This document shows, piece after piece, positions 25-4,139 of a DNA stretch of 4,243 bases. Numbering within the stretch: the stretch's first letter is position 1; the number at the start of each line of letters is the position of its first letter. The stretch comes from Qubevirus faecium, in the sequence record FJ539133.1. One strand, written 5' to 3'. Both the position numbers and the translations under genes were made by a program. Under the pieces are notes generated by a model that was not told the DNA's origin, searched no databases, and worked only from the letters and a program-made list of their open reading frames with translations.

Positions 25-41
25 GCCTTCAACGCACTACA

Positions 42-47
42 GAGGAG
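42..47 (+). promoter_or_regulatory. Shine-Dalgarno sequence of the maturation gene
   Basis: GAGGAG lies 5 nt upstream of ATG 53. An in-frame TAA at 14-16 rules out an upstream extension. Confidence 0.6.
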
Positions 48-52
48 AATCT

Positions 53-1378
53 ATGCCAACCCTTCCGAGAGGTCTTCGCTTCGGATCGAACGGCGAGGTC
101 GTTAACGACTTCAACGCGCTCTGGTTTCCAGAGCGCGAAACCTTCGACTCCGGGCTTGGATCCTACGAACTCACTGGTTACGTAAGTAATCAGCCGGGAT
201 ACGAGACACGCATGCGTAATCCTAGCATGCATTGTATTCGTACACCGCACAGAAGTACGGTGCCAGTTAACCATCTTGGTTACAGGCCTGTTACGACTGT
301 TGAGTACACTCCTAATGGGACTTTCATCCGCCTTGACGGGGATGTGAAGTTTTCCGGTGGAGCGGTCAGTGGGTCGCTCAAACTTAGCAACTATGTTGTT
401 AACTTGGCGGCCCAGGGTGGCTTCGATTACCAGTCGGTAATCGGTCCAAGGTTCTCTGCGCAATTCGCTGCGTTCAGTACCAAGTATGGTACGTTACTAG
501 GCGAAGGGAGAGAAACACTTAGTTATCTTCTCCTGCTGTTTCGCAGGGTGCGTGAAGGGATCCGCGCTGTAAAGCACGGTGATCTCAAGCGCCTCAGGAA
601 TCTGATACGTACGTTCGAGCCGCGCTCCGTTCCCGGAAAGCGGCAAAGAGCATCGTTCTCAGAAGCCTATCGCGACAGAACTGCCAATGGCAGTTGGAAA
701 GACAGTAGTGCGAGTGACCTGTGGTTAGAATTCCGTTACGGGTTGATGCCGTTATTTTACGACATCCAGTCCGTAATGGAAGACTTCATGCGTGTCCATA
801 AGAAGATCGCGAAACTTCAGCGATTCTCTGCAGGACACGGCAAGCTAGTTGAGGTAAAGGGTAAGTTCTTCCCTGATCCTCACTTCGCTCTTGAGGTCAC
901 CGCAGTGTTGCAGCGGCGTCATCGTTGGGGGGTGATATACCAGGATACTGGTTCGTTCGCCACCTTCAATAATGGTCGGCTAATCCCGGTGAGGGATTGG
1001 CAGACAGCGGCTTTAGCACTCCTTAATCCCGCCGAGACTGCTTGGGAGTTAACTCCTTACAGTTTCGTCGCGGATTGGTTTGTTAATGTAGGTGATATGC
1101 TCGAGCAGATCGGCCAGCTCTATCGCCATGTCGACGTTGTCGACGGGTTTGATAGAAAGGACGTGAAGCTCAAGAGCGTGTCGGTACGTGTCATAAGAGA
1201 CGACGCGACGCACACGTCTTTCAGCTTAGCTGGAGCGGTGTTGTTGCATAGTTTCTATTCGCGCGTGCATACCGTTGCGTTTCCGCAAATCTCACCACAA
1301 CTCGATACTGAGATACGTAGTGTTAAACACGTAATCGACAGTATTGCCCTTTTAACTCAGCGTTTTAAAAGACGCTAA
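53..1378 (+). CDS. A2: Maturation (A2) protein; in Qbeta-like phages also the lysis effector
   Basis: 441-aa ORF, ATG start, TAA stop, first gene after the 5' UTR. The translation (MPTLPRGLRFG..., LWLEFRYGLMPLFYDI, AWELTPYSFVADWFVNVGDMLEQIGQLY, VVDGFDRKDVKLKS, LLTQRFKRR) closely matches the Qbeta A2 protein as I recall it. Confidence 0.93.
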   Translation: MPTLPRGLRFGSNGEVVNDFNALWFPERETFDSGLGSYELTGYVSNQPGYETRMRNPSMHCIRTPHRSTVPVNHLGYRPVTTVEYTPNGTFIRLDGDVKFSGGAVSGSLKLSNYVVNLAAQGGFDYQSVIGPRFSAQFAAFSTKYGTLLGEGRETLSYLLLLFRRVREGIRAVKHGDLKRLRNLIRTFEPRSVPGKRQRASFSEAYRDRTANGSWKDSSASDLWLEFRYGLMPLFYDIQSVMEDFMRVHKKIAKLQRFSAGHGKLVEVKGKFFPDPHFALEVTAVLQRRHRWGVIYQDTGSFATFNNGRLIPVRDWQTAALALLNPAETAWELTPYSFVADWFVNVGDMLEQIGQLYRHVDVVDGFDRKDVKLKSVSVRVIRDDATHTSFSLAGAVLLHSFYSRVHTVAFPQISPQLDTEIRSVKHVIDSIALLTQRFKRR

Positions 1379-1396: not shown

Positions 1397-1795
1397 ATGG
1401 CAAAATTGAATAAGGTTACGCTTACCGGTATTGGTAAGGCTGGAGATCAGACTTTAACTCTTACACCGCGTGGGGTAAATCCCACTAACGGCGTGGCGTC
1501 GCTATCTGAAGCTGGAGCTGTTCCGGCGTTGGAGAAGCGAGTAACTGTGTCAGTTGCTCAGCCATCTCGTAACCGTAAGAACTATAAGATCCAGATTAAA
1601 CTCCAGAACCCGACTGCATGCACGAAGGACGCATGCGACCCTTCTGTGACGCGTTCCGCGTTCGCGGACCTAACGCTGTCGTTCACGTCGTATTCTACTG
1701 ACGTTGAACGTGCGCTAGTTCGCACTGAACTGGCAGCTCTGTTGAAGGATGATTTGATTGTCGATGCTATTGACAATCTTAATCCTGCATACTGA
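1397..1795 (+). CDS. cp: Major coat protein
   Basis: 132-aa ORF separated from A2 by an 18-nt intergenic region (TTTTGGGTCAATTCGATC) that resembles the Qbeta coat initiation region. The translation (AKLNKVTLTGIGKAGDQTLTLTPRGVNPTNGVASLSEAGAVPALEKRVTVSV...NPTACTKDACDPSVTR...LNPAY) is Qbeta/SP-like, including the two Cys of the disulfide-forming loop. It ends at TGA 1793-1795. Confidence 0.95.
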   Translation: MAKLNKVTLTGIGKAGDQTLTLTPRGVNPTNGVASLSEAGAVPALEKRVTVSVAQPSRNRKNYKIQIKLQNPTACTKDACDPSVTRSAFADLTLSFTSYSTDVERALVRTELAALLKDDLIVDAIDNLNPAY

Positions 1796-2389
1796 GCAGC
1801 GTTACTGGCAGCCTCGCCGGGTGGCGGGAATAATCCCAACCCTGGCGTCCCGGATAGTCCGAACGTCAAGCCGCCTGGCGGTACAGGCACCTATCGGTGC
1901 CCGTTCGCCTGCTACCGCCGTGGTGAACTCATCACGGAGGCTAAGGACGGAGCTTGTGCGCTTTATGCGCTTGGCAGTGAGGCCATAGTTGAGTTCGATT
2001 ACGCTCTTGAGGATTTCCTCGGGAACGTGTTCTGGCGCAACTGGGACGGTCGCTTATCGACATACGATATCGACACTCACCGTCGTTGTCGCGGTAACGG
2101 GTACGTTGACCTAGACGCAACCATGATGCAGTCAGACGCTTATGTATTGTCTGGCGCTTATGATGTTGTCAAGATGCAACCACCCAGTATCTTCGACTCC
2201 CCTAGGTACTACCTCCATCTAATGGATGGTATCTATGTGGACTTAGCCGAGGTAACGGCATACCATTCTTACGGAATGGTCATTGGCTTCTGGACAGACT
2301 CTAAGAGCCCGCAGCTGCCAACCGACTTTACGCGTTTTAACGGGCGTAACTGCCCCGTACAGACCGTAATCGTCATACCCTCACTTTAA
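1397..2389 (+). CDS. A1: Minor capsid protein A1 (coat read-through protein, about 330 aa)
   Basis: Same frame as coat. No stop between 1796 and 2386, and no ATG/GTG/TTG in the first 77 codons of the extension, so independent initiation is unlikely. The extension begins with a Gly/Pro/Asn-rich linker (SPGGGNNPNPGVPDSPNVKPPGGTG) followed by GTYRCPF...CRGNGYVDLDAT...AYHSYGMVIGFW...CPVQTVIVIP, which parallels the Qbeta A1 extension (PGTGKYTCPF...CRGNGYIDLDAT...AYHADGVIVGFW...CPIQAVIVVP). The total of about 330 aa compares with 329 aa for Qbeta A1. Confidence 0.85.
1793..1795 (+). promoter_or_regulatory. Leaky UGA stop codon of the coat gene (translational read-through site)
   Basis: The coat frame stays open for 197 further codons after TGA, to TAA 2387-2389. 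The local context is TAC TGA GCA. In Qbeta the coat UGA is occasionally read as Trp to make A1. Confidence 0.8.
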
Positions 2390-2404: not shown

Positions 2405-2424
2405 TAGCATGTCTAAGACAGCTA
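2405..2424 (+). promoter_or_regulatory. Replicase translational operator hairpin (coat-protein binding site spanning the replicase start codon)
   Basis: TAGCATGTCTAAGACAGCTA folds as an 8-bp stem (2405-2408 and 2410-2413 paired with 2417-2424), with a bulged A at 2409 (the A of the AUG) and a 3-nt loop UAA (2414-2416). The geometry and sequence match the Qbeta operator AUGCAUGUCUAAGACAGCAU. Confidence 0.7.
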
Positions 2425-4139
2425 GTCACAAGAAGAAAATTACTCAAGCATTGAGTAAGGTCGACATCAACTTTGAAGACGACATCCATATGTCTATTGC
2501 CAATGACCTCTTTGAGGCCTACGGCATTGCACCTCTTGCGTCGGCGGAGCAGTGTATCAGCACTCCGTTCCCTGACACTTCAATGGACGCTGATGCATTT
2601 CGCATCCATTACCTGCGTTCAGAGATCCTTAGCAAGTTCAGTGCGCACCCTCTCGGTATTGATACCGAAGCGGCCGCCTGGGAAAAGTTCCTGGCTGCCG
2701 AGGAGGGTTGTAGACAAACCAACGAACGTCTCACTAAGGTTAAGTACCATGATAATTCCATTTTGTCATGGGGCGAGCGTGTTATTCACACTGCTCGTCG
2801 AAAAATACTTAAACTGATCGGTGAGACTGTCCCGCTGGGGGATGTGGCGTTGCGCGCCCGATTTTCGGGAGGCGCTACGACCTCGGTTAACCGTTTACAC
2901 GGTCACCCGTCGTGGAAGCATGCCTGTCCGCAGGATGTAACCAAACGTGCACTGAAATACCTAATGGCCTATAAAAAGGCCTGTGGTGACGTCGTTGATT
3001 TACGCGTCAATGAGGTGCGCACTTCAAATAAAGCAGTCACTGTTCCAAAGAACAGCAAAACTGATCGTTGCATTGCCATCGAGCCCGGCTGGAATATGTT
3101 TTTCCAGTTAGGCGTAGGTGCTGTGCTCCGCGATAGGTTGCGCCTTTGGCAGATTGATCTTAATGACCAATCTGTTAATCAGCGCCTCGCACGCGATGCG
3201 TCGCAGTTGGACCATTTGGCCACTGTCGACTTATCAGCAGCAAGTGATTCGATAAGCTTACGGCTTGTTGAATTGCTAATGCCGCCTGCTTGGTTTGATC
3301 TCCTGACCGATCTCCGATCGGACCAGGGTGTCCTGCCAGATGGGCGTGTCGTTACTTACGAGAAAATATCCTCCATGGGTAATGGCTACACTTTCGAGCT
3401 GGAGTCGCTAATCTTTGCGGCCCTAGCCAGGAGTGTGTGCGAGTTGTTGGACCTTGACCAGTCAACCGTCAGCGTGTACGGTGATGATATAATCATCGAC
3501 TCACGTGCCGCTGATGTCCTGATGGCGGTTTTTGAGTATGTTGGGTTCACGCCTAACAGAAAGAAGACTTTCATTAAGGGCCCCTTTAGAGAGTCGTGCG
3601 GTAAGCACTGGCACTCCGGGGTTGACGTAACGCCCTTTTACATACGCCGCCCAATCCGTTGCCTAGCCGACATGATACTTGTTTTAAACAGTATATATCG
3701 GTGGGGCACGATTGACGGGGTGTGGGATCCTAGAGTACTGCCTGTGTACCAGAAGTACGTGAAGCTGCTACCAAGAGATTGGCGGCGCAACACTATACCT
3801 GATGGTTACGGTGACGGTGCTCTCGTCGGATTGGCCACGACTAACCCATTCGTTATCGTCCGGAATTATTCCAGATGGTATCCTGTGTTGGTTGAGGTCC
3901 AGAGGGATGCTAAGCGTCACGAGTTTGGCAGTTACTTATATGCCTTGCTGCGTGACCGCGAAGCACGTTACAATCCCTTCCTGCGTACTGCAGATGGGAG
4001 TGGGTTTGATGAAACACCGCTAGCTACTAGCCTTCGTCGCAAGACAGGTCGGTACAAAGTGGCGTGGATTCAGGACAGTGCCTTCATCCGGCCCCCTTAT
4101 TTTATTAAGGGAATTCCCGAGGTGAAGCTTGCGAGCTAG
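2409..4139 (+). CDS. rep: RNA-dependent RNA polymerase (replicase beta subunit)
   Basis: 576-aa ORF, ATG start, TAG stop. Contains the D-x4-D motif A (DLSAASD, 3228..3248) and the catalytic YGDD (3477..3488). The N-terminus MSKTASHKKKITQALSKVDINFEDD and much of the sequence are Qbeta/SP replicase-like; the length equals what I recall for the SP-group replicase. Confidence 0.95.
   Translation: MSKTASHKKKITQALSKVDINFEDDIHMSIANDLFEAYGIAPLASAEQCISTPFPDTSMDADAFRIHYLRSEILSKFSAHPLGIDTEAAAWEKFLAAEEGCRQTNERLTKVKYHDNSILSWGERVIHTARRKILKLIGETVPLGDVALRARFSGGATTSVNRLHGHPSWKHACPQDVTKRALKYLMAYKKACGDVVDLRVNEVRTSNKAVTVPKNSKTDRCIAIEPGWNMFFQLGVGAVLRDRLRLWQIDLNDQSVNQRLARDASQLDHLATVDLSAASDSISLRLVELLMPPAWFDLLTDLRSDQGVLPDGRVVTYEKISSMGNGYTFELESLIFAALARSVCELLDLDQSTVSVYGDDIIIDSRAADVLMAVFEYVGFTPNRKKTFIKGPFRESCGKHWHSGVDVTPFYIRRPIRCLADMILVLNSIYRWGTIDGVWDPRVLPVYQKYVKLLPRDWRRNTIPDGYGDGALVGLATTNPFVIVRNYSRWYPVLVEVQRDAKRHEFGSYLYALLRDREARYNPFLRTADGSGFDETPLATSLRRKTGRYKVAWIQDSAFIRPPYFIKGIPEVKLAS

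Follow-up and report, generated by a model that had tools for sequence, protein, structure and literature searches.

The maturation protein A2 as the probable lysis effector of a group IV Qubevirus faecium genome without a convincing dedicated lysis gene

Introduction

In phage Qβ (Qubevirus durum, group III), the maturation protein A2 is a type I single-gene lysis protein: its expression alone suffices to lyse E. coli, and it inhibits MurA by binding to the closed, UDP-GlcNAc-bound form of the enzyme (PMC10610835, PMC7693330, PMC12856241). Most of the A2–MurA contacts lie in the N-terminal β-region, at residues 30–120, while deletion and substitution data indicate that residues L414–R417 are required for cytosolic lysis (PMC12856241), and the shortest lytic N-terminal fragment reported, as cited in the same study, comprises residues 1–180. 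Neither Qβ nor SP carries a dedicated lysis gene (PMC12856241), and lysis via MurA by the maturation protein has been described for the whole genus (PMC13114773; PMC3561173). Here, we examine how lysis may be encoded in sequence record FJ539133.1 (hereafter “the window”), a 4243-nucleotide (nt) stretch which represents the complete genome of a Qβ-like single-stranded RNA (ssRNA) phage, Qubevirus faecium, of group IV (FI/NL95 type). A preliminary description of this stretch had proposed that it includes no dedicated lysis gene, and that its A2 protein is the lysis effector.

The strains known for group IV are SP, FI, BR1, BR8, HB-P22, HB-P24, and NL95 (PMC6963950). In GenBank, the A-protein of NL95, FI, and M11 carries the note “involved in particle maturation and bacterial lysis”, and newer Qβ-like isolates are annotated with a “maturation-lysis protein A2”. 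The genome studied here has been deposited in GenBank since 2009 with four annotated products (ACT66753-56), none of which is a lysis gene. For group IV itself, lysis of E. coli was reportedly induced in 2002, by Nishihara, with the cloned “lysis gene” of phage SP.

Results

A2 of the window is a full-length homologue of the Qβ lysis protein

Three long plus-strand open reading frames (ORFs) were identified in the window, corresponding to A2, coat, and replicase (rep), and the resulting gene order, i.e., A2, coat, UGA read-through A1, and replicase without a fourth gene, is that of Qubevirus (Table 1). The four products matched the Pfam families Phage_mat-A, Levi_coat, Read-through, and RNA_replicase_B (PF16814, E 1.3e-39, for the A1 read-through domain), and exact protein matches were found in GenBank for A2 (ACT66753.1), coat (ACT66754.1), and replicase (ACT66756.1), all from Qubevirus faecium. 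Accession order, with these entries falling between HB-P22 (ACT66749-52) and BR1 (ACT66757-60), and elimination among the known group IV strains point to HB-P24, a bird isolate, as the strain represented by the window. When the whole window was compared by BLASTN to a phage collection that does not include this genome, the best match was NL95, which covered the entire window (100%) at 90.7% identity, followed by FI strain HB-P22 (83.4%) and by SP, FI, BR1, and BR8 (78–80%), and Qβ was only ~69% identical, with 42% of the window aligned. As in the Qβ genome, a read-through A1 is combined with the lack of a separate lysis gene.

The A2 protein was homologous to Qβ A2 over its full length, with 48% identity overall in a MAFFT alignment. 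A phmmer comparison to the solved Qβ A2 chains (5vlz, 5vm7, and 5mnt) yielded an E-value of 4.6e-116 across two aligned blocks, residues 1–188 and 212–440, and the protein was assigned to the ssRNA-phage maturation family PF03863 (E 2.3e-80). An AlphaFold (AF2) model based on 21 homologues reached a mean predicted local distance difference test score (pLDDT) of 74, and 85–96 for residues 1–130. This model matched 5mnt (E 1.4e-40, template modelling score 0.66–0.70) and displayed the same two-region fold, with an N-terminal β-region and a C-terminal α-region. The residues corresponding to Qβ L414–R417 are retained as LTQR, and all regions of A2 were under purifying selection, with ratios of non-synonymous to synonymous divergence (dN/dS) of 0.04–0.41. 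Hence, gene position, full-length homology, fold, and the LTQR motif are all shared with the Qβ lysis protein (structures 5MNT, 5VLZ, and 5VM7), from which the A2 of the window differs in length (441 vs 420 amino acids, aa) and by an insertion of ~22 aa. Only the Qβ protein is documented experimentally to cause lysis and inhibit MurA.

The comparison to group IV strains revealed no difference of substance. A2 proteins from NL95, HB-P22, FI, SP, BR1, and BR8 share 77–88% identity with that of the window, along with the same insertion and the same architecture, and are otherwise distinguished by ordinary strain-level substitutions; the loops that differ most between the window and these strains are aa 30–60, 91–120, and 189–211. 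The Shine-Dalgarno region of A2 (AGAGGAGAATCTATG) was identical throughout the group IV genomes, and the Shine-Dalgarno sequence itself remained unpaired when nt 1–140 were folded locally.

Genome architecture, the exclusion of alternatives (see below), and phylogenetic parsimony all lend good support to A2 as the lysis effector, and we consider it likely that this phage has no dedicated lysis gene and that A2 doubles as a single-gene lysis protein acting via MurA, as in Qβ. The corresponding proposal of the preliminary description is accordingly supported, by analogy with Qβ, through the Qubevirus gene order, the exclusion of the embedded ORFs, the homology and fold of A2, and the retained LTQR motif. 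By the same analogy, we infer that this A2 would be lytic alone, with MurA as its target.

The MurA-contact region is the most diverged structured part of A2

The similarity between the window and Qβ was not evenly distributed along A2. Numbered by Qβ residues, identity reached 62% at residues 1–29, 55% at 121–180, and 52% at 181–420, and dropped to 30% at residues 30–120. The counterpart of the latter segment, aa 30–119, is the most variable structured part of the protein, with 58–87% identity inside group IV, and its dN/dS (0.14–0.30) is the highest among structured parts, although it still reflects purifying selection. A conserved core, RTPHRxTVP....GxRPxTxV (RTPHRsTVP....G.RPvTtV), persists within aa 30–119 across both groups, whereas no part of the protein varies more than the flanks of this core, even among group IV strains. 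Overall, the MurA-contact surface (Qβ ~30–120, considered here at the level of the region) combines low identity with a preserved core motif and a fold modelled at high confidence. The description of A2 as “clearly homologous” to its Qβ counterpart therefore holds for the full-length protein and its fold, and is weakest in precisely the segment relevant to MurA.

The second difference is the group IV-specific insertion at aa 189–211, which follows the β-region. It was absent in Qβ, M11, and FrHibiscus, and extended 9 aa further in SP, BR1, and BR8 than in the window. This insertion is fast-evolving (rate of non-synonymous divergence, dN, 0.22–0.41) and basic, and was modelled with lower confidence.

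Because identity to Qβ is lowest where most of the MurA contacts have been mapped, we treat the MurA step as inferred only, and MurA inhibition by a group IV A2 as a reasonable extrapolation from Qβ. The same pattern could also be read to mean that A2 is the lysis protein of group IV phages but that, its contact surface having diverged, it binds MurA in another mode or attacks a target other than MurA. This would be in line with the drop in identity at Qβ residues 30–120 compared to 52–62% elsewhere, the elevated dN/dS, and the group-specific insertion adjoining the diverged β-region, and we found no demonstration of MurA inhibition by a group IV A2 in the accessible literature. Yet the fold of the β-region is kept at high model confidence, the core RTPHRxTVP...RPxTxV survives in both groups, and groups III and IV share the same host and the same F pilus. 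Moreover, M11 and Qβ, which both belong to group III, are only 53% identical in residues 30–120, and the contact surface therefore tolerates drift. Parsimony points in the same direction: since groups III and IV both lack a separate lysis gene, a single origin of A2-mediated lysis before the split of the two groups is favored. A change of binding mode or target is therefore unlikely in our view, and inhibition of MurA remains the preferred interpretation for the group IV A2.

Embedded open reading frames do not exceed chance expectations

We then evaluated whether a separate lysis gene may overlap the annotated genes. Conservation of ORFs and synonymous variation were analyzed across the window and six group IV genomes (NL95, HB-P22, FI, SP, BR1, and BR8), the latter as mean pairwise synonymous diversity (pS) among the seven genomes, for which the rep mean was 0.48. 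Chance expectations were derived from a codon-permutation null, in which the codons of each gene were shuffled 2000 times, with genuine genes excluded by stop coordinate. Hydropathy was expressed as the maximum Kyte-Doolittle (KD) mean over 19 aa and as the Hessa free energy (dG, in kcal/mol), with MS2 L (KD 1.74, dG +3.4) and φX174 E (KD 2.79) as yardsticks.

In the alternative frames of the plus strand, the window has nine ORFs of 30 aa or more, compared to 12.5 expected under the null. Two of these, ORFs 2473..2817 and 3118..3255, were about as hydrophobic as MS2 L; 1.0 ORF with KD ≥ 1.65 was expected by chance, and the probability of observing at least two was 0.27. The longest alternative-frame ORF was expected to reach 90 aa, with a probability of 0.15 for at least 114 aa. 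Across the nine ORFs, we detected neither conservation across group IV, nor an excess above chance, nor synonymous constraint. Similarly, the products of embedded ORFs yielded no family match in Pfam or PHROGs, where MS2 L, used as a control, matched PF11125 at 1.5e-40. Because the embedded ORFs fail tests of conservation, chance, constraint, and family membership, which together are stricter than the test applied in the preliminary description, we conclude that the window includes no convincing dedicated lysis gene. The earlier view that no L-like overlapping ORF is convincing is thereby upheld, as none is conserved, above chance, constrained, or a member of PF11125 or of any other Pfam or PHROG family.

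The preliminary description had considered a single candidate, ORF 1758..1988, and dismissed it for want of a transmembrane segment. The dismissal was borne out: the KD of this ORF is 0.73, its dG is +11 kcal/mol, and no transmembrane-like segment was recognized. Its status as “the one candidate” was not, given the nine ORFs listed above, two of them with MS2 L-like hydropathy. Beyond the lack of a membrane segment, ORF 1758..1988 was rejected as a lysis gene for its one to two in-frame stops in 6/6 group IV relatives. Its length is at chance level (P = 0.70 for a longest ORF of at least 76 aa under the codon-permutation null), and synonymous diversity was 0.34–0.53 across 1758–1988 vs an A1 mean of 0.45, without any dip.

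An open +1 frame where Qβ has its cryptic lysis gene

The best-placed rival candidate for a lysis gene remains ORF 2473..2817. In Qβ, ribosomes are reported to shift +1 after the GAG of GAGGUUG near the rep start and to continue from the UUG, the product being a cryptic lysis protein of 67 aa (Nishihara et al. 2004, Genes Cells 9:877, as related in PMC12856241). We located GAGGTTG at Qβ nt 2421, the Qβ stretch compared here being 2421–2556, and a reconstruction from 24 Rep codons and 43 +1-frame codons indeed amounted to 67 aa. Once a 3-codon indel upstream is taken into account, the TTG at position 2473 of the window (rep +64) and Qβ UUG 2425 (rep +73) occupy exactly homologous positions. The two products are alike in their +1 frame and in their opening residues, LKTTSICLLP in the window vs LKVTSHFPLP in Qβ. 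However, the Qβ product is a frameshift fusion of 67 aa without a strongly hydrophobic stretch (dG +9.7), whereas the frame in the window is open for 114 codons and ends in a different C-terminus (LSTMIIPFCHGASVLFTLLVEKYLN), and neither the TTG nor the open frame occurs in any of the other group IV genomes.

A similar mix of likeness and difference emerged from the comparison to MS2, which encodes the hydrophobic half of L in the same +1 frame and neighbourhood. Like L, ORF 2473..2817 lies in the +1 frame near the rep start and combines a basic N-terminal part with L-like hydropathy (KD 1.71, dG +3.3 kcal/mol; hydrophobic C-terminal stretch LSTMIIPFCHGASVLFTLL). Unlike L, it shows no similarity to PF11125, does not overlap the coat/A1 end, and is neither conserved nor constrained. 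A small conserved ORF of the MS2 type was thus not found at the coat/rep junction, ORF 2473..2817 starting 64 nt inside rep.

Could this ORF encode a membrane-active lysis protein, or an accessory lysis protein, in this isolate? Besides its location, such a role would fit its basic N-terminal part followed by a 20-residue uncharged C-terminal stretch, with a hydropathy equal to that of MS2 L, and the finding that most new lysis genes with experimental activity occupy the +1 frame of rep, having arisen de novo in close relatives (PMC7693330). The comparative data speak against it. One to three stops interrupt the frame in 6/6 group IV relatives, including NL95 despite its 90.7% identity, and the TTG start derives from a synonymous TTC>TTT change in a Phe codon of rep found in the window only, all relatives having TCG. 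Synonymous diversity across 2473–2817 was 0.5–0.75, i.e., at or above the gene mean, without a dip, and neither length nor hydropathy stands out from the codon-permutation null (P = 0.15 and 0.59, respectively). The ORF is preceded by a weak Shine-Dalgarno sequence only (AAGG, 12 nt upstream), and Pro, His, and Gly occur inside its hydrophobic stretch. Its product had no family match, was absent from a collection of 15 billion proteins, and has never been gene-called in public data. Because it is isolate-unique, unconstrained, and within chance expectations, we treat ORF 2473..2817 as a chance open frame, and consider a lysis function very unlikely.

Other embedded and minus-strand frames

ORF 3118..3255, the second ORF with L-like hydropathy (KD 1.67, dG +3.0 kcal/mol), includes an Arg within its hydrophobic stretch, is intact in NL95 and HB-P22 only, with one to three stops in SP, FI, BR1, and BR8, and showed no sign of constraint (pS 0.53–0.66 across 3118–3255). 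That this or another small embedded ORF, e.g., ORF 3802..4023, represents the lysis gene is so improbable that we dismiss it: a hydrophobic N-terminus, an AGG located 5 nt ahead of its GTG start, an intact frame in the NL95/HB-P22 subclade, and the small size of some known RNA-phage lysis proteins, down to ~35 aa, would speak for ORF 3118..3255, but it is broken in four relatives, interrupted by Arg mid-stretch, and without synonymous constraint, one ORF of its hydropathy is expected by chance under the codon-permutation null, and ORF 3802..4023 is both less hydrophobic and restricted to NL95 among the relatives.

Three further sets of frames were considered and rejected. A hydrophobic stretch inside A2 (nt 186..344, LTILVTGLLRLLSTLLMGL, KD 1.93) provides at most 23 aa from its first start, TTG 276, and is interrupted by stops in NL95, HB-P22, FI, and BR1 and altered in sequence in the remaining strains. 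The coat +1-frame ORF 1554..1649 (open stretch 1545..1646) is arginine-rich, without a hydrophobic segment or a conserved start. Finally, minus-strand ORFs, including one of 144 aa at 29..463, displayed nothing above KD 1.58; translation of the minus strands is not known for these phages.

As a separate observation, the coat +1 stretch at 1545–1646 (LCQLLSHLVTVRTIRSRLNSRTRLHARRTHATLL) was open in 7/7 group IV genomes, and the open frame is longer still in group III. This stretch probably arises as a side effect of the coat segment SQPSRNRKNYK, which is nearly invariant.

Table 1 Features of the 4243-nt Qubevirus faecium window considered in this study.
Feature	Position (nt)	Strand	Start codon	Length	Remarks
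Shine-Dalgarno GAGGAG of A2	42..47	+			5 nt upstream of the A2 ATG; strong
A2 gene (maturation, presumed lysis protein)	53..1378	+	ATG	441 aa	5'-most gene
A2 aa 1-178	53..586	+			Counterpart of Qβ A2 1-180; 44% identical to Qβ
A2 aa 30-119, β-region tip	140..409	+			Counterpart of Qβ 30-120, to which most MurA contacts have been mapped
A2 aa 189-211, group IV-specific insertion	617..685	+		~22 aa vs Qβ	Between β- and α-regions; phmmer/MAFFT gap
A2 L434-T435-Q436-R437	1352..1363	+			Counterpart of Qβ L414-R417; retained in the window
Coat	1397..1795	+		132 aa	TGA stop, then open read-through to 2389 (A1)
ORF 1758..1988	1758..1988	+	TTG	76 aa	Candidate of the preliminary description; rejected
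Replicase (rep)	2409..4139	+		576 aa	
ORF 2473..2817	2473..2817	+	TTG	114 aa	+1 frame near rep start; judged non-functional
ORF 3118..3255	3118..3255	+	GTG	45 aa	+1 frame of rep, hydrophobic N-terminus; judged chance ORF
ORF 3802..4023	3802..4023	+		73 aa	KD 1.35; intact only in NL95

RNA structure, synonymous-site constraint, and additional A2 diversity

The synonymous diversity profiles of the seven genomes also highlighted several regions outside the candidate ORFs. The strongest signal was observed at the 3' end of rep (3969–4136), where synonymous change was strongly suppressed, with pS of 0.11–0.16 vs the gene mean of 0.48. Because local alternative-frame stretches extend to at most 33 aa and are not hydrophobic, we read this dip as probably reflecting the conserved RNA structure of the 3' domain that serves in replication, rather than an overlapping ORF. 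Further dips (pS 0.22–0.27) were found at 503–592, 1250–1339, 1607–1696, and 2409–2498. The last of these covers the rep start and operator region, and the dip at 1250–1339 adjoins the site that corresponds to an annotated SP feature, “replicase binding region s” (X07489 1331–1443). All four likely reflect constraints from RNA structure or protein binding.

At the 5' end, the fold of nt 1–140 (−64.3 kcal/mol) was far more stable than those of shuffled sequences (z = −5.6), with a perfect terminal hairpin at nt 2–28 and two more hairpins within the start of A2 (95–112 and 115–137). A promoter and terminator scan of the 5' end found nothing; such a scan is not applicable to an RNA phage.

Regarding annotation, A2 matched PHROG phrog_4286 at E 8e-142, the label of which, “head maturation protease”, is misleading for the pilus-binding maturation protein of an ssRNA phage. 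In the NL95 record (AF059243.1), a compensated frameshift in A2 was noted around window positions 1110–1130, with a C inserted after GAGCAGA and, 19 nt further on, two additional bases, which yields TRPALSVN vs IGQLYRH in all other strains. This may represent either a genuine local frame excursion or old sequencing errors.

Finally, Logan read-archive assemblies included further relatives of A2, among them group IV-like proteins at 89%, 83%, and 80% identity, a 421-aa protein, 52% identical, that is intermediate between groups III and IV, and others of ~420–430 aa at 28–41% identity. These relatives suggest that Qubevirus-like diversity is still unsampled, and would be useful for mapping the conserved surface of A2.

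Discussion

The reading of A2 as the lysis protein of this phage is the genus-level consensus and textbook knowledge for the genus, and the genus literature and the annotations of NL95, FI, M11, and newer Qβ-like isolates all state the same. As it stands, our result thus restates genus-defining biology for a deposited genome, and by itself matters little. If transposed from Qβ, the underlying mechanism would start with free cytoplasmic A2, and possibly virion-borne A2 too, binding closed, UDP-GlcNAc-loaded host MurA through its exposed N-terminal β-region. This block would stop the first committed step of peptidoglycan synthesis and lead growing cells to burst at the septum, with the timing of lysis presumably fixed by the amount of A2 accumulated.

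A number of points weigh against this reading and have to be set beside the evidence in its favor. The direct experiments that we found in the accessible literature concern Qβ (group III) only, and the window shares only 30% identity with Qβ in the segment holding most of the MurA contacts, in addition to carrying a group IV insertion of ~22 aa after the β-region. In Qβ itself, the A2 mutant V418K remains infectious despite its defect in cytosolic lysis, and Qβ cDNA lacking A2 still releases particles (PMC12856241); A2 may therefore not be the only exit route. The authors of this 2026 study tentatively ascribe these findings to the +1-frame peptide (PMC12856241), and the isolate studied here has an intact +1 ORF where Qβ has its cryptic lysis gene, with exact homology of the start. 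We nevertheless retain A2 as the probable lysis effector.

Two questions give this genome a broader relevance. The first is whether the “protein antibiotic” surface that A2 presents to MurA has been conserved in group IV or re-solved differently, which bears on the design of MurA inhibitors on this scaffold. The second arises from the work on Qβ (PMC12856241), which casts doubt on free A2 as the sole way out of the cell and draws attention to the +1 frame at the rep start. Because that frame is fully open in this isolate, the latter represents a convenient natural test case. We consider it extremely unlikely that ORF 2473..2817 is a newborn membrane-active lysis or accessory gene, arisen from one silent TTC>TTT change together with the loss of stops in a phage that lyses its host through A2; if true, however, this ORF would be a snapshot of the birth or turnover of a lysis gene within Qubevirus.

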